Positions 1 to 26,212 of a stretch of 27,657 nucleotides of DNA are shown here, one piece after another (within the stretch, counting starts at the first letter, position 1; each line of letters starts with the position of its first letter). The DNA comes from a virus (lineage: Duplodnaviria; Heunggongvirae; Uroviricota; Caudoviricetes). The translations under genes and the position numbers were made by a program. The DNA lies in IMG/VR virus record IMGVR_UViG_2703718778_000008, one strand, 5' to 3'. The notes under the pieces are model-generated. The model was not told the DNA's origin. It saw nothing but the letters and a program-made list of their open reading frames with translations, and searched no databases.

Positions 1-2
1 AA

Positions 3-164
3 CACAACGAAAAATATCTCGACCCTACAAATGACGAGGACAATATGAGCGACACAACGATCCTGCAAAACAGTACCCAAGTTAAAAAATATCCATCTAA
101 GGCATTGAATTTTATTTGTTTGTTAAATGCTTTGCCTACATATTGCCTTGCTTTGAGAATATAA
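3..164 (+). CDS. 3' end of an unidentified ORF entering from the left window edge (...DEDNMSDTTILQNSTQVKKYPSKALNFICLLNALPTYCLALRI*)
   Basis: By my own translation, frame 3 is open from nt 3 to TAA at 162-164, with an internal ATG at 45. The region is AT-rich. A strong hairpin terminator starts 2 nt after the stop. No family recognised; this may be flanking host or island DNA. Confidence 0.3.
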   Translation, partial: HNEKYLDPTNDEDNMSDTTILQNSTQVKKYPSKALNFICLLNALPTYCLALRI

Positions 165-166
165 AA

Positions 167-200
167 AGCCCGCAGTTTTTACGCTGCGGGCTTTATTTTT
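167..200. terminator. bidirectional rho-independent terminator
   Basis: A 9-bp GC-rich stem, AGCCCGCAG (167-175) / CTGCGGGCT (184-192). It is followed by TTTATTTTTT on the plus strand and preceded by AAAAA, which reads as a U-run on the minus strand. It sits at the 3' ends of both the left-edge ORF and the hok-like transcript. Confidence 0.75.
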
Positions 201-286
201 TCTTTGTGACTTGCGTGTGAGGGTGCTACTTTCGGCCTTACCCTGACAACCGATTGACGGGGGATTACTCCCCCGTCGCGGTTTCC

Positions 287-427
287 TTACTGCTTACACT
301 GTAAGAGCGCCGCAAACTCCGCTCCCCAGATGTTCATCCGTATTTCACACAGCGAACCATGTAACATCCAGATGATGAGGATTGCCGTCACGCAGAACGT
401 GATGGCCATAAGCGATTTTTGCGACAT
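287..427 (-). CDS. hok: Hok/Gef-family type I toxin, 46 aa (MSQKSLMAITFCVTAILIIWMLHGSLCEIRMNIWGAEFAALLQCKQ)
   Basis: Absent from the ORF track because it is under 60 aa; translated by hand. SD AAGGAG lies 7 nt upstream of the ATG at 427. It has one N-terminal TM helix followed by C-V-T-A-I...S-L-C-E-I-R, which closely resembles the Hok signature (C-L-T-V-I...D-L-C-E-V-R). The 3' UTR has a 9-bp hairpin (257-278) and ends at the 167-192 terminator. Confidence 0.75.
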   Translation of the reverse strand: MSQKSLMAITFCVTAILIIWMLHGSLCEIRMNIWGAEFAALLQCKQ

Positions 428-560
428 AGCGCTTGCTCCTTTGTTGGAGAGGCGCTAACCTTCCACTTGTCTAGGGTAGGAATGGTTAGGGCCTCGGGTT
501 AAACAATATGTTTGACTCGGGGCCTTTCCACATCCGGCCTTCAGGTTTTCCTTCCAGCCG

Positions 561-863
561 TCAGCCGAAAGGCACCCGCGCGTAATGTACTGGTTTTAAA
601 GCCATACCGCAATCCTCCAGTTGTAGCGTTAACTGACTGCGTCCCTGATGGGATTTGCGCATTGTCTCCCGTGGAATATCTTTATCGTGGAAGATCAACT
701 GAGGCTGGCCAATAATTCTGTGCACACTTTCCATTGTTGAAAATGTGGCGCTGCACTCAAGGTTATTGCACTGATAGTATTTGTAGCGGATGGTGCCGGT
801 ATCATTGGCGGCTTTACTGGTACGGATCCGGGCAGATGCGCCGCAGAATGGACAATGAAACAT
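561..863 (-). CDS. ogr: Ogr/Delta-family zinc-finger late-gene transcription activator (100 aa)
   Basis: Starts MFHCPFCG...YYQCNNLECSATFSTMESV, a CxxC...CxxxxC zinc motif that is near-colinear with P2 Ogr (MFHCPLCQ...CQNVNCSATF). The ATG at 863 is chosen over the ORF-track start at 938. A G-rich SD lies upstream. Confidence 0.9.
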   Translation of the reverse strand: MFHCPFCGASARIRTSKAANDTGTIRYKYYQCNNLECSATFSTMESVHRIIGQPQLIFHDKDIPRETMRKSHQGRSQLTLQLEDCGMALKPVHYARVPFG

Positions 864-907
864 TGATATACCCCCCTGGCTGAACTGGGGTTGAACTCGT
901 CGCCATT

Positions 908-2032
908 CTAACCATTGCTTTCCTTTTCGGCTATCCACTCGGGTATTCTTGCCTCCAGTTCAAGCCTTGTGGTGAAGCCGCTTCCGTCGATATTGTGTTC
1001 CACTTTTGCAATGAGCCAGTCCTGATTGTCTATTTCGGTTTTAAAGCCGGTTACCGTGCCATGCATTTCAGGGTAAAGCTCCGCTCTGCCCCGGGCCAGC
1101 GTGATGGAGAATTCAGCCGCACCGCGCTGTAATTGCTGCCACCTGGCGGCAGCTGCGCGCTGTGCAGCAATTTCATTTGGGTAGGTTTTTCTCAGAACGA
1201 ACACGTTACCTTCTGCCCCCTCCATGTAGCTGCCTTCCCGGCTGCTGCTCTTTTCAGCGTGAGTTTTTCGTTTTTTTATGTTGACGGCTTTCTTTTTGCC
1301 ATGATTCAAATCCAGCCAGTACGCCTTCACCCCTGTGTATGCCTGGCGATCGGCTATTCTGAACTGGTGACTGTCTCCGTCACTGCGTGCCAGTGCAAAT
1401 GAGGGGAGTGGGCGCCCGTCAGCTGTCACGCCGCCACCCGGCAGAATGAACAGCAGACAGCCATTTTTGACGGTAGTGATGGCTCCCAGCATATCAGCCA
1501 TGCGGGTAAGGAATGACATGTCGCTTTCTTCCGTCTGGTCGGCATGATCGATTTCAATATCCATAAGCATATCGCTTATCTGGGCTTTCAGTCCGTAACG
1601 GTGGGCAATAGCGGAAACCACGCGTTCAACAGTCACGTCGTGCCAGGATACTTCCCGTTTGACGTTAAATTCCTCCCTGAAGTCTGCGCTGTTTGCACTC
1701 AGTGTCAGCCGATCCGGAGGTCCTTCATGAGCGACCTCATCAACAATGTAGGTGCCTTTATCAACCAGAGGCTCTCCCTTCCATCCCAGCATGACTCTGA
1801 TGTGTGTTCCCCGCCCGGGGAGAGCCAGCTGCCCGTCGGCATCATCCAGCACAAGAGTGACCCTGTCTGCTTCAAACCCCCGGTTGTCTGTCATGGAAAG
1901 CGATATCACCCGGTTATTCAGTTCCTGAAGAGTGTTTTTATCCTGCTCCCTGTCCAGTGAAACGCTGAAATCAGGCATTTTCACCAGTTCTTTCAGGGGG
2001 GAATAAACCGTGTTACCGTTCAGCAATACCAT
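908..2032 (-). CDS. D: tail / late control protein gpD (374 aa)
   Basis: Contains ...ISLSMTDNRGFEADRVTLVLDDADGQLALPGRG...GWKG...VDEVAHEGPPDRLTLSANSADF...SWHD, a typical P2 gpD pattern. The start at 2032 is chosen because of GGAGGAATTATG. The longer track ORF (to 2383) overlaps FI and has no RBS. Confidence 0.9.
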   Translation of the reverse strand: MVLLNGNTVYSPLKELVKMPDFSVSLDREQDKNTLQELNNRVISLSMTDNRGFEADRVTLVLDDADGQLALPGRGTHIRVMLGWKGEPLVDKGTYIVDEVAHEGPPDRLTLSANSADFREEFNVKREVSWHDVTVERVVSAIAHRYGLKAQISDMLMDIEIDHADQTEESDMSFLTRMADMLGAITTVKNGCLLFILPGGGVTADGRPLPSFALARSDGDSHQFRIADRQAYTGVKAYWLDLNHGKKKAVNIKKRKTHAEKSSSREGSYMEGAEGNVFVLRKTYPNEIAAQRAAAARWQQLQRGAAEFSITLARGRAELYPEMHGTVTGFKTEIDNQDWLIAKVEHNIDGSGFTTRLELEARIPEWIAEKESNG

Positions 2033-2091
2033 AATTCCTCCGTTTTTCCCGCCACAGTTGCATACCAGAAACACCACCGGAATGAGTTTGG

Positions 2092-2113
2092 GTTGTATGT
2101 GTATTGCGAGAAA
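2092..2113. promoter_or_regulatory. degenerate Ogr-type dyad (GTTGT-N12-AGAAA) in the divergent D / FI control region
   Basis: The left half is identical to the half-site of the perfect dyad at 20655-20676; the right half matches 3/5. The centre (2102.5) lies about 54 bp from a predicted FI TSS (-10-like TAAAGA at 2145-2150) and about 50 bp from a predicted D TSS (minus-strand TGnTATGCA at 2067-2059). Prediction from sequence only. Confidence 0.3.
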
Positions 2114-2186
2114 CCGCAGTTCGTGAAAAAGCTCCCCGTGTTCGTAAAGATCTCTGCTGAACTCACACCAATGCAGGGTGAATAAT

Positions 2187-3374
2187 ATGGCTGAAACCCG
2201 TTTCCATGGCGTGCGGGTCCGGGAGAATGCGGATCTGGTCACGGCCATTAATGATATTGACTCCAGTGTGATTGGTATCGTGGCTGTTGCTGATGATGCT
2301 GATACAAAAACATTTCCGCTGGATAAGCCGGTGCTCCTGACGCGTGTCATGGATGTGCTGGGTAAGGCCGGAAAAACCGGCACGCTGTATAAAAGTCTGA
2401 AAGCTATTGCCGATCAGGTCAGCACCAGAGTTGTTGTGGTGCGGGTTGCTGCTGCGAAGGAGGGGGATGGTCAGCCGACACAAACGCAGCTTGTTATTGG
2501 TGAGGTCAAAAATGACGGAACCTATACAGGCATGCAGGCGCTCCTGGTGGCTGAACAGAATGAGGCTGTTGGTGTTCGTCCCAGGATCCTGGCCGTGCCA
2601 TCGCTTGACACCAAAGAGGTGGTGGCGGCACTGGTAACCGTCGCGAAAAAGCTGCGTGCCTTTGTGTATGCGGGCTGTCCCGGCTGTAATACCGTGCAGG
2701 AGGCTGTTACCTGGCGCGCCGATCTTGCTCACCGTGAAGTTATGCTGATCTGGCCTGATTTTATCGCGTACAACCCTAACAGTGGCCAGAATGAGGCTTT
2801 TCCTGCATCTGCGTATGCGTGCGGGTTGCGTGCGAAGATTGACCACGAGCAGGGCTGGCATAAATCCCTGTCCAATGTGGCAGTGAATAATGTCCTGGGT
2901 ATTTCTGTGCCGGTGTTCTGGTCGCTCCAGGCAGAGGACAGTGACGCGGAAACCCTCAATGACAAGGAGATCACCACACTCATTAAACGTAACGGCTTCC
3001 GTTTCTGGGGTAACCGGACTCTCGACACCACTACCTACACCTTTGAGACCTACACGCGTACGGCGCAGTCGCTGGCGGATACCATCGCCGAATCGCAGTT
3101 TGAAACCGTGGACAAGCCGCTGACGCCGTCGAACGTGAAGGATGTGTTAAGCGATATCCGGGCAAAACTGAGTGCCCTTGTGACAGCGGGTAAACTTATC
3201 GGGGCAGAGTGCTGGTATGACGTGGTGGATAACGGCACAACGGATCTGCGTCAGGGGATTGTGCGGATCCGCTACAGATATACGCCGGTACCACCGCTTG
3301 AAGATCTGGAGCTTCACCAGACGTTTACTGATGAGTTCTTTGACGGTGCATTTGCATCACTGGGAGGTGAGTAA
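2187..3374 (+). CDS. FI: contractile tail sheath protein gpFI (395 aa)
   Basis: Contains ...HGVRV...DADTKTFPLDKPVLLT...KAGKTGTL..SL.AIADQ...RPRILAVPSLDTKEVV...KLRAF...REVMLIWPDF, colinear with P2 FI. The ATG at 2187 has SD GGTGA 7 nt upstream. The track start at 2178 is a GTG. Confidence 0.93.
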   Translation: MAETRFHGVRVRENADLVTAINDIDSSVIGIVAVADDADTKTFPLDKPVLLTRVMDVLGKAGKTGTLYKSLKAIADQVSTRVVVVRVAAAKEGDGQPTQTQLVIGEVKNDGTYTGMQALLVAEQNEAVGVRPRILAVPSLDTKEVVAALVTVAKKLRAFVYAGCPGCNTVQEAVTWRADLAHREVMLIWPDFIAYNPNSGQNEAFPASAYACGLRAKIDHEQGWHKSLSNVAVNNVLGISVPVFWSLQAEDSDAETLNDKEITTLIKRNGFRFWGNRTLDTTTYTFETYTRTAQSLADTIAESQFETVDKPLTPSNVKDVLSDIRAKLSALVTAGKLIGAECWYDVVDNGTTDLRQGIVRIRYRYTPVPPLEDLELHQTFTDEFFDGAFASLGGE

Positions 3375-3883
3375 TGGCGGTACCAAACAAACTTCGCGTT
3401 TTCACGGTGTACATCGATGGCGAAAACAAGCTGGGGCGGGTGACGTCCTTCACGCCGCCTAAACTGACCCGAAAAACGGAGTCCTTCCGTGGTGCCGGGA
3501 TGCCCGGCAGTGTTTCCGTCGACTTTGGTCTTGATGATGGTGCACTGGATCTCTCTTTTGCGGTAGGCGGCGCAGATGCCCACCTTTTCTCCCGTTATGC
3601 CGGGTCACTTGATGAAGTCTGTCTTCGCTTTTCCGGTGAGTACTATTCGGATGCGGATATCAGATATGTGGATATTGAGGTCCGCGGGCGCATCACTGAA
3701 ATCGATATGGGGGAGGCGAAGCAGGGTGAAGACACTGAGCACAGTTATTCGATGAAAAACACCTGGTACAGACTGAGTGTGGACGATCGGGAAAAAATCG
3801 AATTTGATGTGCTGAATTTTATCTGGCGCATTGACGGTAAGGATGTGCTGCCGGATCGCACCCGCTCGATGCTGGGCTTCTGA
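3374..3883 (+). CDS. FII: tail tube protein gpFII (169 aa)
   Basis: Position and size match P2 FII. There is a TAATG stop/start overlap with FI, and GGAGGTGA lies upstream. Confidence 0.9.
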   Translation: MAVPNKLRVFTVYIDGENKLGRVTSFTPPKLTRKTESFRGAGMPGSVSVDFGLDDGALDLSFAVGGADAHLFSRYAGSLDEVCLRFSGEYYSDADIRYVDIEVRGRITEIDMGEAKQGEDTEHSYSMKNTWYRLSVDDREKIEFDVLNFIWRIDGKDVLPDRTRSMLGF

Positions 3884-3900
3884 TTATTGTTTAACAGAGA

Positions 3901-3919
3901 ACGGCGGGGATCCCGCCGT
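3901..3919 (+). promoter_or_regulatory. intercistronic GC hairpin between FII and E
   Basis: ACGGCGGG / CCCGCCGT, an 8-bp perfect stem with no U-tract. It is probably an mRNA stability or attenuation element separating the abundant sheath/tube genes from the downstream genes. Confidence 0.4.
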
Positions 3920-3930
3920 GGAGACTGAAA

Positions 3931-4320
3931 ATGGATAAAGAAACGGAAATGGCCACTGACACTGCCGTCAGTAACGGGGAGGCTTCCGCGGTGGCAGTTG
4001 CCGCTACGGCTGCACCTAAGAACGTGGTGAAGCTGACGGTGCCTGTTGTGCGCGGAGATGTGTCGTACAGTGAAATTAAAATCGGACCGCTGGCGAATCA
4101 GGCCGGATCGCTGCGTGGGCTGTCTTTGCTTGCGCTTTACAACATGAACTGTGATGCCATGGTCACCTGGCTTGCGCGTGTGACAGAGCCAAAACTTAAG
4201 GAGGCCGAAATGTATGCCATGAATACGGCGGATTTTACGGCGCTGAGCTCGGCGGCGGTTAATTTTTTCGCACCCTCGGGGTCGAATGCACCGGCACCGG
4301 AGAACACGGCAGAGCCGTAA
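3931..4320 (+). CDS. E: tail assembly chaperone gpE (129 aa)
   Basis: GGAG lies 8 nt upstream of the ATG. Contains ...LTVPVVRGD...LRGLSLLAL...EAEMYAMNTADF..L...VNFF, resembling the P2 gpE pattern. It sits directly upstream of the tape measure gene. Confidence 0.85.
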   Translation: MDKETEMATDTAVSNGEASAVAVAATAAPKNVVKLTVPVVRGDVSYSEIKIGPLANQAGSLRGLSLLALYNMNCDAMVTWLARVTEPKLKEAEMYAMNTADFTALSSAAVNFFAPSGSNAPAPENTAEP

Positions 4321-4478
4321 CCTGTCTTTGCTTTGACTGCATTGAAGATCCCGTTGCGGATATTGCTGTTATTTTTAACTGGCCGCCCGCAGAGATATTT
4401 GCAATGACGCCTGCAGAGGTGGTCGCCTGGCGTGAGCGGGCGGCTGCCAGAAGCGGAAGTCACAATCATGATGAATAA
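3931..4478 (+). CDS. E': gpE+E' -1 programmed-frameshift product
   Basis: The slippery heptamer T TTT TTC (4263-4269) is in the correct zero-frame register (N-F-F). The -1 frame then stays open to TAA at 4476-4478. It encodes ...IEDPVADIAVIFNWPPAEIFAMTPAEVVAWRERAAARSG, which matches my memory of the P2 GpE' domain. Its end overlaps the T start. Confidence 0.6.
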
Positions 4479-7260
4479 TCTGCATATCAGGGTTGCTCTG
4501 GCGGCGGCAGACACCCTGACACAACCTCTCAGGCGCGCCCGCGAAACCGTGGGCGCGCTTTCTGATTCCCTCCGTGAAACTCAGGACTCCATCCGCTCGC
4601 TTGAACGGCAGAGTGAAGCCTTTGCTGCGGCACAGACTAAATTTGACGAAGCCACCCGGAAAATTGCCGCTGTTCAGCAGCAACTGAACCGTCTGCAGCA
4701 GGCGGAGCGTGAGGATACCGTGCTCAGTGAACGGCAGCGTGAAATGATGGCTTCGCTGACCACCCGGCTTGAACGTCTGAACCGGGTGAGGGATGTACAT
4801 CAGCGACGCCTGGAGGATTCACGCCGGGAGCTGGAGAGACACGGTATTGCCGCAGAGGGCAGCAGTCAGACCATACAGGCAGCCATTCGCCGGACGGCAG
4901 AGTATAACGAAGAGCTGGCGCGACAGCGGCAGGCACTCGCACAGGTGACCCGTGCACAGCAACGCTATGAACAGGCGCAGGAGCGACTCGGGCGGATACG
5001 TAATGCCGGTGCGGCGGCACTGGCTGCCGGTGCAGCAGGACTTTACGCTGGCGGGCGTGCTGTTGCGCCGGTGATGGATCTCCAGCGTCATGGTGCCGTC
5101 ATTGCGGCTCAGGCAGGAGAGGGCGCGTCAGATGCCGTGGGGTATACCGGGGTTATAAACCACATGGTTCATACCGGTATCACACCGGATGCACAACTGG
5201 CGGCTGAAGCTGTGGGTGCTGTCCGCTCCACTCTGGGTGGGCTGGGGGCGGTTAGTGAGAATGAACTGACCCGAATCACCCGAAAAATGCTGGATATGCA
5301 GGCCGTGATGGGGGGCGATATCCCGCAGCACATTCAGGCGGCTGCCATCATGATCAAAAACGGTCTTGCACGCAGCAGTGACGAGGCGGTTGATCTGATG
5401 GTGGCGGGCATGCAGCGCATGGGGCCGGTTATGCGCGATGAGCTGCCTGAGATCCTTCACGAGTATTCGACCCATTTTCGTAACATGGGGCTGACAGGGT
5501 CGGAAACCATGACGCTCCTTGCGGATATGGCGCAGCAGGGGAAGTTTGCGCTGGATAAAACCGGCGATGCCATCAAGGAGTTCAGTATTCGCGGCTCCGA
5601 TATGTCAAAGGCGAGTGCTGAAGCGTATGCGCTTATCGGGCTGGATGCAGCCAGGATGTCATCGGCTGTAGCCAGTGGTGGAACGGCTGCACGGGCTGCG
5701 CTGCAGAAAACAGCCTCGGGTCTGTTGCAGATCGTCGATCCGGCTGAGCGGGCCAATGCGGCCATCGCACTTTTTGGTACACCGGTTGAAGATCTGTCTG
5801 TCGATCAAATCCCTGCCTTTCTTGGCGCGCTGGCGCGGGTGTCTGACCGTATGGCTGACGTGTCTGGTGTGGCGGACCGGATGGGGCAAACCCTGCGTGA
5901 CAATCTGAGTGGTGATGTGGCGCGGCTTACCGGGACGTTCAGCGCGCTGAGAAGTGGGATTATCGGGGAGATTACGGACGATCTGCGTGGGCTTGTCCGG
6001 ATGGCCACAGCGTGGGGTGAGCGTCTGCAGGCGTGGGTGAATGCGCATCCGGAACTGGTGCGAATGATTGCGCTGACGACGGGAGCGGTGCTGGCGTTAA
6101 CCACAGCGGTGGGGGCGTTGTCCGTTGCGGCCTGGATGGTTGTCGCACCGTTACTGAAACTGCGTCTGGGGCTTGCCCTGCTTCGCGCGATCCCGGCCGG
6201 ACTCTCCGTTGCCGGTACGCTGTTTGGCGGACTGACGGGTGTGATTTCAGCCGTGGGGGCTGCGCTGGGGGCGCTGACCTGGCCGGTTGTGGTGGCGGTG
6301 GGAGCCCTGGTCGGTGGTGCTCTGCTGATCTGGCGCTACTGGGATCGGGTCAGGGCGTTTGTGAGCGGATTTATTGAAGGGGTACAGTCAGCACTGGCGC
6401 CCTTCATGGCGACAGCCTCCCGTTTTGCGCCGCTGCTGGATCTGGTTTCAGGGGCACTGTCCCGTATTCTGGGATGGTTTAAATCCCTGTTAACGCCAGT
6501 CTCCTCCACGCGTGATTTGCTTGAGCAGTGCACCTCTGCCGGGCAGACGTTCGGGAGCACTCTGGCCGGTGCGTTAGCCACGGTTTTTTCGCCCCTGAAA
6601 GCTCTTATTGACGGTCTGGCGTGGGTGCTGGAAAAACTCGGTGTTCTGCCCGGTGAAGCTGAGCGGGTTAAGCGAAAACTGGATGAGGCCCGTAAAACGC
6701 CGGTGGCATGGGAGTGGGATCCGGAACAGAAAAAAATGGTTCAGAAGGCGTGGCACTGGTCGCCTCCTGGTGGGGCCAGTGTGCCTTCCGGCGCCTCCGG
6801 TACACAGCCTCCGCCGGTGGCGCTCCCTGCGGGGATAGCGCCGGACGGTAACCGTAACGTTCTCCGTCACCTGAAAGGCATTGAGGGGAATACCGGTGGT
6901 CTGCTGGCTGAAAACCGTAAACGTATCGGACCCGGAGATATTGTGTTTAAACATCTTCCACGGGCGCTGGCGGTCCGGGGGCAGTGGCATGAACCTGTCG
7001 TTGCGCCGTCTTCCGGCGGAATGCGCGCGCTGCCACAGGAGGAGATTCAGGTGCAGCAATGGCCGACGGCACGCCCGGCGCCACGAATGCACCAGCAGGA
7101 AACCTTCGCCAGCGCCTTTCAGGGGGAGATACATGTGCATCTTCACGGGGTGAGTTCGTATAATCCCCGGGAACTGGCGCGCATGGTTGGTGACGCTGTC
7201 AGGGCGGAAATGAACAGAATGGCACGTGCCGGAACCGGCAGCTTCCGCGATCGCGACTGA
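4468..7260 (+). CDS. T: tail tape measure protein gpT (930 aa)
   Basis: Size, position, a coiled-coil N-terminal part and a long Gly/Ala/Leu-rich hydrophobic central segment all fit. ATG-ATG at 4468 overlaps the E' stop. The track start at 4432 is a GTG. Confidence 0.9.
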   Translation: MMNNLHIRVALAAADTLTQPLRRARETVGALSDSLRETQDSIRSLERQSEAFAAAQTKFDEATRKIAAVQQQLNRLQQAEREDTVLSERQREMMASLTTRLERLNRVRDVHQRRLEDSRRELERHGIAAEGSSQTIQAAIRRTAEYNEELARQRQALAQVTRAQQRYEQAQERLGRIRNAGAAALAAGAAGLYAGGRAVAPVMDLQRHGAVIAAQAGEGASDAVGYTGVINHMVHTGITPDAQLAAEAVGAVRSTLGGLGAVSENELTRITRKMLDMQAVMGGDIPQHIQAAAIMIKNGLARSSDEAVDLMVAGMQRMGPVMRDELPEILHEYSTHFRNMGLTGSETMTLLADMAQQGKFALDKTGDAIKEFSIRGSDMSKASAEAYALIGLDAARMSSAVASGGTAARAALQKTASGLLQIVDPAERANAAIALFGTPVEDLSVDQIPAFLGALARVSDRMADVSGVADRMGQTLRDNLSGDVARLTGTFSALRSGIIGEITDDLRGLVRMATAWGERLQAWVNAHPELVRMIALTTGAVLALTTAVGALSVAAWMVVAPLLKLRLGLALLRAIPAGLSVAGTLFGGLTGVISAVGAALGALTWPVVVAVGALVGGALLIWRYWDRVRAFVSGFIEGVQSALAPFMATASRFAPLLDLVSGALSRILGWFKSLLTPVSSTRDLLEQCTSAGQTFGSTLAGALATVFSPLKALIDGLAWVLEKLGVLPGEAERVKRKLDEARKTPVAWEWDPEQKKMVQKAWHWSPPGGASVPSGASGTQPPPVALPAGIAPDGNRNVLRHLKGIEGNTGGLLAENRKRIGPGDIVFKHLPRALAVRGQWHEPVVAPSSGGMRALPQEEIQVQQWPTARPAPRMHQQETFASAFQGEIHVHLHGVSSYNPRELARMVGDAVRAEMNRMARAGTGSFRDRD

Positions 7261-7270
7261 GGTGAAAAAG

Positions 7271-7762
7271 ATGATGATGATTTATGGGATGTTTGTGTTT
7301 CAGTTAAGTACCCTGCCGCATCAGCAGGTGGAACAGAGTAAACGCTGGCGACACGTCAGTAATGAACGGGTTAACCGTTCATCCTCCTGGCAGTATATTG
7401 GCTCTGGTGAAGATCACATCACGATGTCCGGTGTGCTCTGTCCGGAAATCACCGGCGGGGAGGTGTCACTGACTGCCCTGAACACCCTGGCCTACACAGG
7501 ATTACCTTGGCCACTGATTGATGGTGTCGGACAGATTTACGGGATGTATGTCATTACGGAAATCAGGACCACCCGTCAGGAGCTGGATCGCTATGGCATG
7601 GCCCGCAAAATTGAGTTCACTGTCAGCTTTCAGCGATGCAATGAAGATCTGCGTGAGCGTCTTCAGTCGGGCTCGGTGGGTGATCTGATGGCAGGATTAA
7701 AAAACAGCGCGTCGTCGGCCCTGTCGTCGGCGTCCTCTGCGCTGTCTGGTCTCATGTTGTGA
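7271..7762 (+). CDS. U: tail protein gpU (163 aa)
   Basis: MMMIYGMFVFQL...WRHVSNERV...ITMSGVLCPEITGG...WPLIDGVGQIYGMYVIT is colinear with P2 gpU. GGTGA lies 7 nt upstream of the ATG. Confidence 0.85.
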   Translation: MMMIYGMFVFQLSTLPHQQVEQSKRWRHVSNERVNRSSSWQYIGSGEDHITMSGVLCPEITGGEVSLTALNTLAYTGLPWPLIDGVGQIYGMYVITEIRTTRQELDRYGMARKIEFTVSFQRCNEDLRERLQSGSVGDLMAGLKNSASSALSSASSALSGLML

Positions 7763-7772
7763 AGGTCACTGT

Positions 7773-20654: not shown

Positions 20655-20676
20655 GTTGTATGGCGACGGGGACAAC
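20655..20676. promoter_or_regulatory. Ogr-type late-promoter activator site, GTTGT-N12-ACAAC (contains TGT-N12-ACA), between divergent O and P
   Basis: A perfect 5-bp-arm dyad read directly from the sequence. Its centre (20665.5) lies about 54 bp upstream of a predicted P TSS (-10-like CTTAAT at 20707-20712) and about 56 bp from a predicted O TSS (minus-strand CATCAT at 20621-20616). P2-family late promoters carry TGT-N12-ACA near -55. Confidence 0.6.
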
Positions 20677-23587: not shown

Positions 23588-24091
23588 TTAACGGAATGCG
23601 GATGGCGTTCTTCTTTGCAGCTTGCTGATAATATGCATCTTCATACTGTTTACTATCGGCAGCCATTCCCTGTCACCGTCTCCGTTGATGACCACGCGAA
23701 TGGAGGTATCATCTTCCACGCGAACCCGAAGAGATACACCGTCTTTTCCGACGGAATGTAACTCCATTGCCAGGACTATGTTTACCGACTCTCCTTCATC
23801 GTGTGAGTCAACCCATGTTCTTACAGCCATCCGGAATATGTTATCTGTGTCGGTTGCAATCATATTTACCGGAAATGGCCTGAAGTCCCGATCGTTTCTG
23901 CACGGAAACCCCGTATCAACGTAACGATGATGCTCGCCGTCTTTGTCTTCCCATGTCTCTGAAGGCAATTCCAGCCACTGCTCATAAAAAGCAACCAGCT
24001 TTTCAGCCTGATTGCGCAGAATCCCTGTAACCTCCCGCCTCGCGTCCCGGCTCTTTTTGTTTGCCAGGTACAAATCGCGAAAATGGCTCAT
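23588..24091 (-). CDS. hypothetical protein, 167 aa, no family recognised (orphan cargo between portal gene and cos)
   Basis: Clean ORF with SD AAGGAGA 6 nt upstream of the ATG at 24091. A private AT-rich upstream region (24100-24240) contains sigma70-like hexamers. The product is soluble and slightly acidic. No motif recognised. Confidence 0.6.
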   Translation of the reverse strand: MSHFRDLYLANKKSRDARREVTGILRNQAEKLVAFYEQWLELPSETWEDKDGEHHRYVDTGFPCRNDRDFRPFPVNMIATDTDNIFRMAVRTWVDSHDEGESVNIVLAMELHSVGKDGVSLRVRVEDDTSIRVVINGDGDREWLPIVNSMKMHIISKLQRRTPSAFR

Positions 24092-24273
24092 GTCGCTCTC
24101 CTTTGGTCTGTTTATGCCAGCCTGTATTCTGCGCTCACCTCATATTGTGCGCAAGTTTTCACCCGTGAATGACTGATACTTTAAATTCTATTAACTTTAT
24201 GATTTCAGTGATTTTTGTCTCTCTTTTTTATCCCGTTCGTCACGTCCGTTTCCCTCCCGATCTCCGACCTCGC

Positions 24274-24300
24274 CAGACGCAATCAGACGCATTCTGACGG
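24274..24300. repeat. three 10-bp-phased direct repeats, CAGACGCA / CAGACGCA / CTGACGG
   Basis: Copies start at 24274, 24284 and 24294, so the period is exactly 10 bp. They lie about 115 bp to the Q-proximal side of the best cos candidate. Confidence 0.6.
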
Positions 24301-24413
24301 CCTGTTTCCCTGACCATGTTTTGATGTGGTTTTTCAAAACTGGCTTCACTGCGCGCGTATCACGCGCAATACGACCCCAAATAAAGCAACCTGCCTTCCA
24401 CCCCTCAATTCGG

Positions 24414-24432
24414 GCGCCCTTCCCTCGTCGCC
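24414..24432. other. putative cosN (19-nt cohesive-end sequence), reverse complement GGCGACGAGGGAAGGGCGC
   Basis: Matches 13/19 positions of the P2 cohesive end as I recall it (GGCGAGGCGGGGAAAGCAC), including both termini, and in the orientation expected next to Q. It lies in a ~500-bp GC-rich non-coding tract. Not verifiable without a comparison or an end-mapping experiment. Confidence 0.35.
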
Positions 24433-24530
24433 TGCGCGCTGCAATTGCCTCGTTTTTCGTGCACCGTGCAAAGTGGCTTCAGCCCGCGCCGTTACTGGGC
24501 TGAGTGGGGATGAAACACATAAGAAAAATT

Positions 24531-24560
24531 GTGCAATTTCGTGCACTTTTGTGCAGTTTG
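24531..24560. repeat. three tandem 10-bp repeats, GTGCAATTTC GTGCACTTTT GTGCAGTTTG (two more GTGCA copies at 24459 and 24466)
   Basis: The period is exactly 10 bp, with a T-tract in each unit, which predicts an intrinsic bend. The repeats end 15 bp upstream of the TTGACA at 24575. Confidence 0.6.
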
Positions 24561-24574
24561 AAACGGGTATCTGT

Positions 24575-24604
24575 TTGACACTGGTACTTACTTTGCGCTA
24601 ACTT
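24575..24604 (+). promoter_or_regulatory. candidate sigma70 promoter, TTGACA-N18-TAACTT
   Basis: A perfect -35 hexamer at 24575-24580, with a -10-like TAACTT at 24599-24604. The predicted TSS is near 24611. It is the only plausible promoter upstream of the 24806 gene. Confidence 0.35.
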
Positions 24605-24711
24605 TACTCGACCAGAAATTTCAATGAATCGGATGAGGTTGTTTGTCATACGACCTCGGTTAGCTAGGTTGCCTTAATCAAAAGGCATGTTTGATACTGG
24701 AGGAGGTTAAT

Positions 24712-24747
24712 ATGAATAAAGCATTTGACGAATTTGATGGATTCTGA
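24712..24747 (+). CDS. leader sORF, 11 aa (MNKAFDEFDGF)
   Basis: A very strong SD, GGAGGAGG (24699-24706), lies 5 nt upstream of the ATG. TGA at 24745-24747. Too short to assess coding potential. Confidence 0.3.
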   Translation: MNKAFDEFDGF

Positions 24748-24765
24748 ATGTGTTAACCTCGATAA

Positions 24766-24794
24766 GGCGGAGACTGATCTCCGCCTTTTTTATT
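24766..24794 (+). terminator. rho-independent terminator 12 nt upstream of the membrane-protein ATG
   Basis: GGCGGAGA-CTGA-TCTCCGCC (an 8-bp stem with a tetraloop) is followed by TTTTTTATT. Confidence 0.8.
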
Positions 24795-24805
24795 GGTAAA
24801 GAAAT

Positions 24806-25309
24806 ATGGCTATGGACTCAGTAACGATACAAATCATTAGCAATATGATAGTCCTGTTTGGTGTCATTGTTGCTATCTGTACAATTATCTATAACGTTCG
24901 TACGGCAAAAAAAACACAAACCGCTAATTTTTTATTTGAAAGTCGCCAGGATAAGGAATACCTGGAATCATTACATCTCCTCAGGAGAATTCATCGCTCA
25001 GGGAAATCGTTTCGTGCTTATGTTTTTCCTTGTGAAGGCGGGGCTATTACGGAAGAGGAGATGACCGAACGTCGCAAGTTTCAGTACATTCTTAACTTTT
25101 ACGAGAGAGTTGCAGTTAGTATCCGTGAAGGTATTTATGATGAAAGGATGATCAAACGAACGTCCTTTACAACGATTATTACAACTTATGATATTGCAGA
25201 ACCCCTGATTAAGGCTATCAGAGAAGATACTCAATCAAAAACAGCGTACCAGGAGTTTGAATGGCTGGTAAAACGATGGAAAGCTCGTCCTCTTGATAGG
25301 GATGTGTAG
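24806..25309 (+). CDS. hypothetical N-terminally membrane-anchored protein, 167 aa (AT-rich cargo in the P2 old/tin position)
   Basis: One TM helix (IQIISNMIVLFGVIVAICTIIY) is followed by a ~135-aa charged helical domain. GC is clearly lower than in the flanking phage genes. A hairpin follows the stop. It vaguely recalls small uncharacterised DUF-type proteins from phages, but no confident family assignment is possible. Confidence 0.75.
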   Translation: MAMDSVTIQIISNMIVLFGVIVAICTIIYNVRTAKKTQTANFLFESRQDKEYLESLHLLRRIHRSGKSFRAYVFPCEGGAITEEEMTERRKFQYILNFYERVAVSIREGIYDERMIKRTSFTTIITTYDIAEPLIKAIREDTQSKTAYQEFEWLVKRWKARPLDRDV

Positions 25310-25324
25310 TTTATTTCTTGCATT

Positions 25325-25351
25325 AGAGCGAGGTTATTGGTGCCTCGCTCT
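25325..25351. terminator. hairpin between the convergent membrane-protein gene and the SSB-like gene
   Basis: AGAGCGAGG (25325-25333) / CCTCGCTCT (25343-25351), a 9-bp stem. A weak T/A run follows on the plus strand. Confidence 0.55.
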
Positions 25352-25356
25352 TTAAA

Positions 25357-25674
25357 TTATCGAGCCGTTCTTGCGCTCATGATGCTTTGCGCCAGCAACT
25401 GCCAGCCCTCTTTCTGTTGCCCGCGCTTGTCCTGATACCTGTTTACCTGCAAGTTTCCGTGCACCAGAATCAGATCGCCTTTTCTGTGTTTTGCCAGTTC
25501 TTCGTGCTGCTTCCCGAATGCAATAAGGTAAAGCCACATTGTGGTTGGCTGTTCTGCGCCATGGCAGGGTAGTGATACCGCCAGTTGTGCCGTTGTGACG
25601 TTGGTTCCTTTGGTTGTTCTCCTTGTGTTCGGGTCTGCTGCCAGTCGTCCCTCTGTTGCAACCTGTGTTGGCAT
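25357..25674 (-). CDS. SSB-like OB-fold single-stranded DNA-binding protein, truncated form (105 aa)
   Basis: GRLAADPNTRRTTKGTNVTTAQLAVS...W..LIAFGKQHEELAKHRKGDLILVHGNLQVNRYQDKRGQQKEGWQLLA parallels E. coli SSB ([26 protein letters not shown]...[49 protein letters not shown]). The acidic C-terminal tip is absent. Confidence 0.7.
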   Translation of the reverse strand: MPTQVATEGRLAADPNTRRTTKGTNVTTAQLAVSLPCHGAEQPTTMWLYLIAFGKQHEELAKHRKGDLILVHGNLQVNRYQDKRGQQKEGWQLLAQSIMSARTAR

Positions 25675-25706: not shown

Positions 25707-26045
25707 TTAGATGGCTGGCAGATCTCCGCCAGCGCCGTAGATAAACAGAATTCGCTTCATGATTTCGCTGCGCTTACAGGCTTCGATGACTGATTTTTCC
25801 TGTTGCCATTCTGCCCGTTGCGCCAGCTCCAGTCGTTCCTTTTCCGTTAGCTTCCGGTAATGCGTTATCTTGTCCGTGTACCCGTCCACAACCAGCAGCC
25901 CTTCGCGTACCATCTTCCCGGCGGCCTGATTAATGATGGTCCTTTTCACGCCCAGTTTTTCAACCAGCTCTGGTGCGCTGAAGCGTGCGTGCGTTTCCAG
26001 GTAGCGTAAAATGATTACCTTTCCGGTCATTCTGGGTGTCTTCAT
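25707..26045 (-). CDS. putative winged-helix DNA-binding protein (112 aa)
   Basis: The start at ATG 26045 overlaps the upstream stop (ATGA). ILRYLETHARFSAPELVEKLGVKRTIINQAAGKMVREGLLVV has a MarR/wHTH-like pattern. Family not confirmed. Confidence 0.5.
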   Translation of the reverse strand: MKTPRMTGKVIILRYLETHARFSAPELVEKLGVKRTIINQAAGKMVREGLLVVDGYTDKITHYRKLTEKERLELAQRAEWQQEKSVIEACKRSEIMKRILFIYGAGGDLPAI

Positions 26046-26212
26046 TTGGCGGCTCCTTCGTTGTTCCGGCGTTCGCGGAGTTCGGTCAGTGCTGCCAGTA
26101 AATTTTCCCACCATGTTTCTTCCACAACCGGATTTCGTCGTGAAAGCAGCTGCTGCGCCGACTCAATCATTTTCGTAAGCTCTTTGTCGCTGATCCTCCT
26201 GATGTCGTTCAT
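26042..26212 (-). CDS. hypothetical small protein (56 aa)
   Basis: The ATG at 26212 is preferred because AAGGAG lies 6 nt upstream; the track start at 26251 has no SD. It belongs to the translationally coupled early-operon tail. Confidence 0.45.
   Translation of the reverse strand: MNDIRRISDKELTKMIESAQQLLSRRNPVVEETWWENLLAALTELRERRNNEGAAK

Follow-up and report, generated by a model that had tools for sequence, protein, structure and literature searches.

Inversion of the FI-to-U tail gene block in a P2-like prophage of Escherichia coli: most probably an old, inherited arrangement of a classified Peduoviridae branch

Phages P2 and 186 carry their late tail genes on one strand in the order V W J I H G (Z/fun) FI FII E E' T U D ogr, an order that the first-pass annotation of the DNA studied here quoted correctly, according to the annotation of both phages. 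This DNA, a 27.6-kb stretch (27,657 nucleotides (nt), IMG/VR record IMGVR_UViG_2703718778_000008; hereafter the window), is most of one P2-like (Peduoviridae) prophage of Escherichia coli, situated beside serS. Here FI, FII, E/E', T and U lie on the plus strand (2187-7762), opposite to the order of P2 and 186, and ogr and D (561-2032) and the genes from G to R (7773-13246) are on the minus strand. As the same annotation had proposed, an order of the P2/186 type would yield this layout if the F promoter and the genes down to U were inverted as one segment. The question raised by the locus is how such a layout arose. We put the probability at about 90% that it goes back to one old inversion in an ancestor, which took in the F late promoter and everything on to U and which all examined descendants have inherited and kept.

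Relatives were gathered from reference genomes and IMG/VR as loci encoding homologues of the U protein (gpU), and D, FI, FII, E, T, U, G, H, I, J, W, V, S, R and ogr were placed in each locus by tblastn. D was opposite to FI in 55 out of 55 loci in which gpU was at least 67% identical to that of the window and D and FI could be oriented; FI was also opposite to J in all 41 of those loci that have J. The arrangement, treated in the first-pass annotation as a peculiarity of this genome, is shared by all of these relatives. The canonical layout, on the other side, was found in 28 out of 28 loci with gpU of ~44% identity, which include P2, Fels-2 and prophages of Enterobacter, Pantoea, Halomonas and Acinetobacter; phage 186 is canonical by annotation. 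A neighbour-joining tree of the sheath (FI) protein, read as unrooted, has one clean split between the two layouts.

The divergent layout is also well represented among named phages. D and FI are collinear with the window in 37 deposited phage records of at least five genera of the International Committee on Taxonomy of Viruses (ICTV), among them ST16-OXA48phi5.4 (Reipivirus) and 3LV2017 (Reginaelenavirus), and the divergent layout is the sole arrangement that permits such collinearity. The full arrangement was confirmed by annotation in P88_4B11 and phiSM (Xuanwuvirus), phiT5282H (Novemvirus) and SEN5 (Senquatrovirus); for KSP20, whose record is partial, only the D-FI side was confirmed. Several carriers have been reported as active phages, induced or plaque-forming, namely P88 (PMC5285337), SEN4/5 (PMC5261728) and phiSM (PMC6456863), so the layout is functional. 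The window has the same two features: D diverges from FI across a spacer of the ~150-175-nt type, and U converges on the fibre end of the V operon.

The sequence between D and FI suggests where the inverted segment begins. The first-pass annotation was right that D, and ogr with it, is separated from the F operon and divergent from FI; the spacer, a divergent control region at 2033-2186, measures 154 nt between the ATG of D (complement of 2030-2032) and that of FI at 2187. In 39 distinct relatives this spacer is typically ~150-175 nt long (range 133-217), and each of the 39 contains exactly one TTGT-N12-A[C/G]A dyad. The single dyad of the window, TGTATGTGTATTGCGAGA at 2094-2111 (TGT-N12-AGA, in the context GGTTGT...AGAAACC), emerged solely from the alignment of the relatives' spacers, not from an exact-motif scan. 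Its one mismatch to TGT-N12-ACA, AGA, is common in many relatives. The centre of the dyad is 84.5 nt upstream of the FI ATG (78-88 nt, mode 84, across the relatives); for the centres of the activator sites annotated at P2 pF and 186 pJ, the corresponding distance to FI is 82.5 nt. The window dyad is a predicted Ogr/B-type activator box, at the P2/186 spacing upstream of FI. Since the box has kept this distance, the F late promoter moved along with the block, which places the left breakpoint upstream of the box. In the history that we propose, the F late promoter and, with it, FI, FII, E/E', T and U would have been turned round as one piece in the ancestor of a large sublineage. The descendants of that ancestor would have been left with D and ogr reading one way, the FI-to-U genes diverging from D, and U meeting tail to tail the gene that ends the V-W-J-I-H-G operon.

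Alignment of the spacers with the box as anchor shows a conserved -10-like element, GGGATTAT, between +42 and +49 towards FI; towards D, the mirror image GGGAnnnT is conserved at the same positions (42-49) from the box. On the strength of this conservation, D might have a leftward promoter that mirrors the F promoter and is served by the same single box. At the thresholds used, a scan for the sigma-70 consensus gave no promoter in the D-FI spacer or upstream of ogr. Between D and ogr, most inverted-clade relatives have a TAGAAT/TAAAAT/CAGAAT-like hexamer in the same place, represented in the window by the candidate -10 TAGAAT of an ogr promoter (905-910, minus strand) overlapping the D stop codon. 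P2 and 186 have their annotated ogr and B promoters at this position, and ogr is for this reason probably still expressed on its own, from a promoter that it would have retained. Elsewhere in the window, an exact TGT-N12-ACA dyad is found at 20657-20674, in the divergent junction between O (capsid scaffold) and P (terminase), the expected place of P2-type PO/PP late promoters.

Could the layout have another origin? An inverted block may reflect an assembler that misoriented these 5.7 kb, a possibility that the first-pass annotation had raised and for which the sole ground is the difference from P2 and 186. Its probability is next to nil: at 95% identity or more, 12 of 12 complete E. coli chromosomes match positions 1500-8900 of the window, both junctions included, in collinear order and with no high-identity match split, and G and U are 10 nt apart, with the same junction and orientation, in all 10 independent contigs sampled. 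An index of the assembly collection lists the exact G protein in 594 blocks, one IMG/VR contig is ~100% identical to the window, and the layout is common to all related phage genomes. The same annotation had suggested a segment that inverts within the population. Such phase variation by a site-specific recombinase, known from the G segment of Mu and the C segment of P1, gains some plausibility from the P88-type relatives, which encode a serine invertase exactly at the U/G junction; that enzyme, however, acts on a tail-fibre segment. No invertase or recombinase family was matched among the window open reading frames (ORFs) scanned. The 12 genomes, the 10 contigs and the assemblies of the 55 orientable relatives each have a single orientation, and the D-FI spacer, conserved in length, has evolved as a stable promoter region. 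A search for inverted repeats across 1700-8100 agreed with the first-pass observation of none at the two junctions: the best pair (23 nt, 74% complementarity) has its arms within the D and U coding sequences, and no repeat pairs 2033-2186 with 7755-7780, leaving either border without crossover sites. The marks of Gin/Cin/Hin-type systems are thus all missing, with no adjacent serine invertase among the ORFs scanned, no inverted repeats at the borders and no second orientation among the assemblies, and we regard active switching as exceedingly improbable.

The lack of flanking repeats leaves room for illegitimate recombination at any time, and a recent inversion in this prophage only, or recurrent independent inversions in several lineages, might be proposed on that ground. 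The layout is, however, common to phages that are merely 45-78% identical in these proteins and belong to at least five genera; the distance from the box to FI is essentially equal throughout, and the FI tree has a single split. Recent or repeated inversion is very improbable on this evidence. A slim chance remains with module exchange, in which the FI-U block would have come from another myovirus and been inserted in reverse. Such an exchange would suit the mosaic make-up of tailed-phage genomes and the highly variable tape measure of the relatives (29-59% identity); against it, the divergence from canonical P2-like phages is about equal inside the block (FI 48%, FII 42% and U 44% identity) and outside it (J 52%, V 46%, D 46%), and the P2/186-type Ogr box has been retained together with its spacing from FI. 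Because identity is similar on the two sides of the borders, inversion in situ in a common ancestor is favoured over import of a foreign module.

Some points weigh against the single ancestral inversion and the control scheme drawn from it. The survey was seeded with the window gpU and may therefore have caught too few lineages of intermediate divergence. The neighbour-joining tree is a simple one, of a single protein; which layout came first is judged from the canonical order being the more widespread taxonomically (Acinetobacter, Halomonas, Pantoea), not from rooting. Production of virions by the window prophage is not guaranteed, some copies having a broken H or T. As for the control region, the case for a shared Ogr box and a leftward D promoter consists of conservation. 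The D-side element of the window, AACTGT, is a weak -10, the right half of the window box reads AGA, not ACA, and exact TGT-N12-ACA occurs three times in the window versus 6.6 expected, with none of these in the D-FI spacer.

At the other end of the block, the window departs from its relatives. The stop codon of U (TGA, 7760-7762) and that of the G-position gene (TCA on the plus strand, 7773-7775) are separated by the 10 nt AGGTCACTGT (7763-7772). The first-pass description of this junction, convergent genes with only a 4-bp stem and no terminator, held up: a terminator scan found no terminator-like site at the junction, and folding of 7720-7820 on either strand gave the 4-bp stem (GUGA/UCAC) only and was no better than shuffled sequence (z = 0.21 and -0.27). 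The C-termini of U and G are of normal length despite the 10-nt spacer. The junction typical of the sublineage, though not necessarily defining it, has a hairpin terminator or an invertase cassette between U and the fibre-assembly gene, and the window has neither. Strong hairpins lie in the U/G spacers, 32-203 nt long, of seven relatives (loci L030, L032, L033, L034 and L043, phiT5282H and SEN5; for example, AAAACGCCCGTCAGTCGGGCGTTTT in L033), in several cases flanked by A/T runs. This comparison covers the seven junctions inspected in sequence plus annotated records; automatic U-to-next-gene gaps are unreliable where the gpU alignment began in the T overlap or G was not homologous.

The hairpin of the relatives is plausibly the former terminator of the V operon, now bidirectional and serving both convergent operons. 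The lineage of E. coli prophages to which the window belongs has deleted the U/G spacer down to 10 nt and lost the strong terminator. Loss of this terminator is the sole trait specific to the window. Since the junction lacks a terminator, the two late operons presumably run into each other, with transcription stopping through Rho or through collision of polymerases. If this is so, antisense read-through or polymerase collision between the head-on operons could tune the ratio of tail fibre to tail tube. Combined with the D-FI region, the predictions make up a scheme that we offer tentatively, as possible rather than probable: two late promoters in mirror image, PF to the right and a new PD to the left, would depend on one palindromic Ogr box, and the terminatorless tail operons would tune fibre against tube by antisense read-through or collision. 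We know of no documented bidirectional activator architecture of this kind in P2-like phages.

The U/G junction also bears on the Z/fun cargo slot, which the first-pass annotation had called eliminated. The slot is indeed empty here, but the wording was too strong, as 186 is likewise geneless between G and FI: its G-FI interval is 128 nt with a terminator and a promoter only. As 186 shows, an empty slot is nothing out of the ordinary, even in phages of canonical order. Some members of the inverted clade go on carrying variable cargo at the U/G junction, for example the P88 type with its invertase and alternative fibre genes. The accessory genes of the window prophage are located elsewhere.

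The genes were identified, and their strands assigned, by PHROGs and Pfam profile searches, which agree with the RefSeq and contig annotation of the same prophage. On the minus strand, ogr (561-863) encodes a zinc-finger late activator of the Ogr/Delta type with 100 amino acids (aa) and the N-terminus MFHCPFCG (phrog_603; PF04606 Ogr_Delta; 'ogr/Delta-like zinc finger family protein' in RefSeq), and D (908-2032; phrog_52; PF05954 Phage_GPD) encodes the 374-aa late control D/tail protein, outside the F operon. The plus-strand block comprises the tail sheath gene FI (2187-3374; phrog_23; PF04984/PF17482), the tail tube gene FII (3374-3883; phrog_55; PF04985 Phage_tube) and the tail assembly chaperone pair at 3931-4478, consisting of E (3931-4320) and the E' frameshift ORF (4341-4478) (phrog_103; PF06528 Phage_P2_GpE on a 45-aa ORF; 'GpE family phage tail protein' in RefSeq). 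They are followed by the tape measure gene T (4432-7260; phrog_28; PF10145; 942 aa, or 930 aa from the alternative start in RefSeq) and the tail protein gene U (7271-7762; phrog_76; PF06995 Phage_P2_GpU; 163 aa from the gene-caller start, in an ORF that opens at 7226). The last gene of the V operon, in the G position (7773-8360, minus strand), encodes a tail-fibre-associated DUF4376 protein (phrog_1141; PF14301; RefSeq), and profile searches placed H (8372-9712), I, J, W, V, S and R, for tail fibre, baseplate and tail completion, behind it in the canonical relative order on the same strand (8372-13246). Beyond R, the minus strand carries an esterase gene, the lysis genes, L, M, N and O, followed by P and Q and then the early and replication genes on the plus strand. 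The P2-like late and tail set (FI, FII, E/E', T, U, D, ogr, V, W, J, I and H) is complete in these profile searches, and the capsid and terminase genes Q, P, O, N, M and L were likewise matched. Searches of the whole window with Rfam (gathering thresholds) and with a tRNA scan gave no matches.

Several accessory loci accompany this backbone. Within the late region, between the lysis genes and R, the minus strand encodes a 688-aa protein with DUF1737, SASA esterase and DUF6645 domains (13581-15647), which is 55-57% identical over its full length to the NanS-p/YjhS-type 9-O-acetyl-sialate esterases of lambdoid phages that convert their hosts to production of Shiga toxin (Stx); 341 records match it, with no P2-like phage among the matches listed. 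The gene looks like a lambdoid-derived moron in a P2-like prophage. It is adjoined and accompanied by a small ORF (13262-13450, minus strand; DUF1378/phrog_494). Just beyond ogr, at the prophage end (region ~160-600), lies a gene for a Hok/Gef-family toxin (~287-427, minus strand), and a second copy is found outside the window, towards serS; at the DNA level the locus matches 'MokW-like host killing' loci of Stx phages and P88 with 83-89% identity. Near this gene there is a perfect 12-bp bidirectional terminator hairpin (165-194), and Rfam detected no Sok-type RNA there at its gathering thresholds. An island of low GC content (~24000-25500; 41-45% versus ~55% elsewhere) between the portal gene Q and the replication genes, containing a DUF4760 gene (24806-25309, plus strand), is probably another slot for accessory genes, and a Ren-like/MarR-like gene is located at 25707-26114. 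The same prophage is decaying in some strains: H is annotated as fragments in E. coli STEC17-183 (L081), and T is split into three ORFs in CP027376.1 (L078). One inverted-clade relative, a Trabulsiella odontotermitis prophage (L003 and L044), has a truncated D and carries its I and H homologues on the strand of U, a layout that we read as a further rearrangement or a decaying element.

How new is the arrangement? The first-pass annotation allowed that it might be the normal order of the sublineage, and so it is, on the evidence of deposited and classified genomes and not of a published statement. The gene order is already known in the sense that it belongs to a sequenced, ICTV-classified group of Peduoviridae, of which the window is a further member. 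We found no written description of the inversion in the accessible literature, and the papers on P88, SEN4/5, the C. rodentium prophage and Serratia PP4 do not apply 'inversion', 'inverted', 'orientation' or 'gene order' to the layout. As the order is standard for a well-populated, classified P2-like branch, the layout carries little weight as a discovery. It does matter for annotation: whoever assigns operons, prophage ends or rearrangements in Xuanwuvirus-type prophages should not take the P2 order for granted. It also suggests two small, testable ideas about late control, namely an Ogr box shared by divergent promoters and convergent operons without a terminator.

Among known systems, the closest to the window in T and G are the uncultivated IMG/VR loci L030, L033, L034 and L043 (T 53-59% and G 56-66% identical), which have the inverted block and a tight convergence of U and G (32-42 nt). 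Their spacers are almost entirely hairpin, with A/T-run flanks of the bidirectional-terminator type in L033, L034 and L043, and this element is deleted in the window. The same gene order and strands, with ogr and D together, FI-FII-E-E'-T-U divergent from them and G-H-I-J-W-V converging on U, occur in P88 and P88_4B11 of Escherichia and phiSM of Citrobacter (Xuanwuvirus, Peduoviridae). Their D and FI are 75-77% identical in amino acids to those of the window, and their D-FI spacer is also 154 nt with one TGT-N12-AGA box. They differ in having ~2.5 kb between U and H, with a serine DNA invertase and an invertible cassette of alternative tail-fibre/assembly genes, where the window has 10 nt. The usual ICTV yardstick for a genus is ~70% nucleotide identity across the genome. 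Megablast of window positions 1-12500 against Xuanwuvirus covered at most 10%, at ~80% identity, and blastn of D-FI gave 72% identity; by nucleotide identity the window is probably not a Xuanwuvirus. In the Enterobacter phage phiT5282H (Novemvirus) and the Salmonella phages SEN4/SEN5 (Senquatrovirus), the block is again inverted, with a single Ogr box 81-82 nt from FI, and U directly faces a tail-fibre assembly gene without an invertase. The assembly proteins are unrelated to the DUF4376 protein of the window, and the U/G spacer, 154-203 nt long, includes a strong GC-rich hairpin (AAAGCGGGC...GCCCGCTT), of which the window has no counterpart. The canonical phages P2 (Peduovirus), 186 (Eganvirus) and Fels-2 (Felsduovirus) have the gene set of the window, and P2 and 186 share its late-operon logic, with an Ogr/B box centred ~83 nt upstream of FI and, behind D, a promoter specific to ogr. 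The interval between G and FI contains a terminator, together with fun(Z) in P2 or an invertase in Fels-2 and with no gene in 186; unlike in the window, FI to D are co-oriented with V to G in these three phages, and D is the last gene of the F operon.

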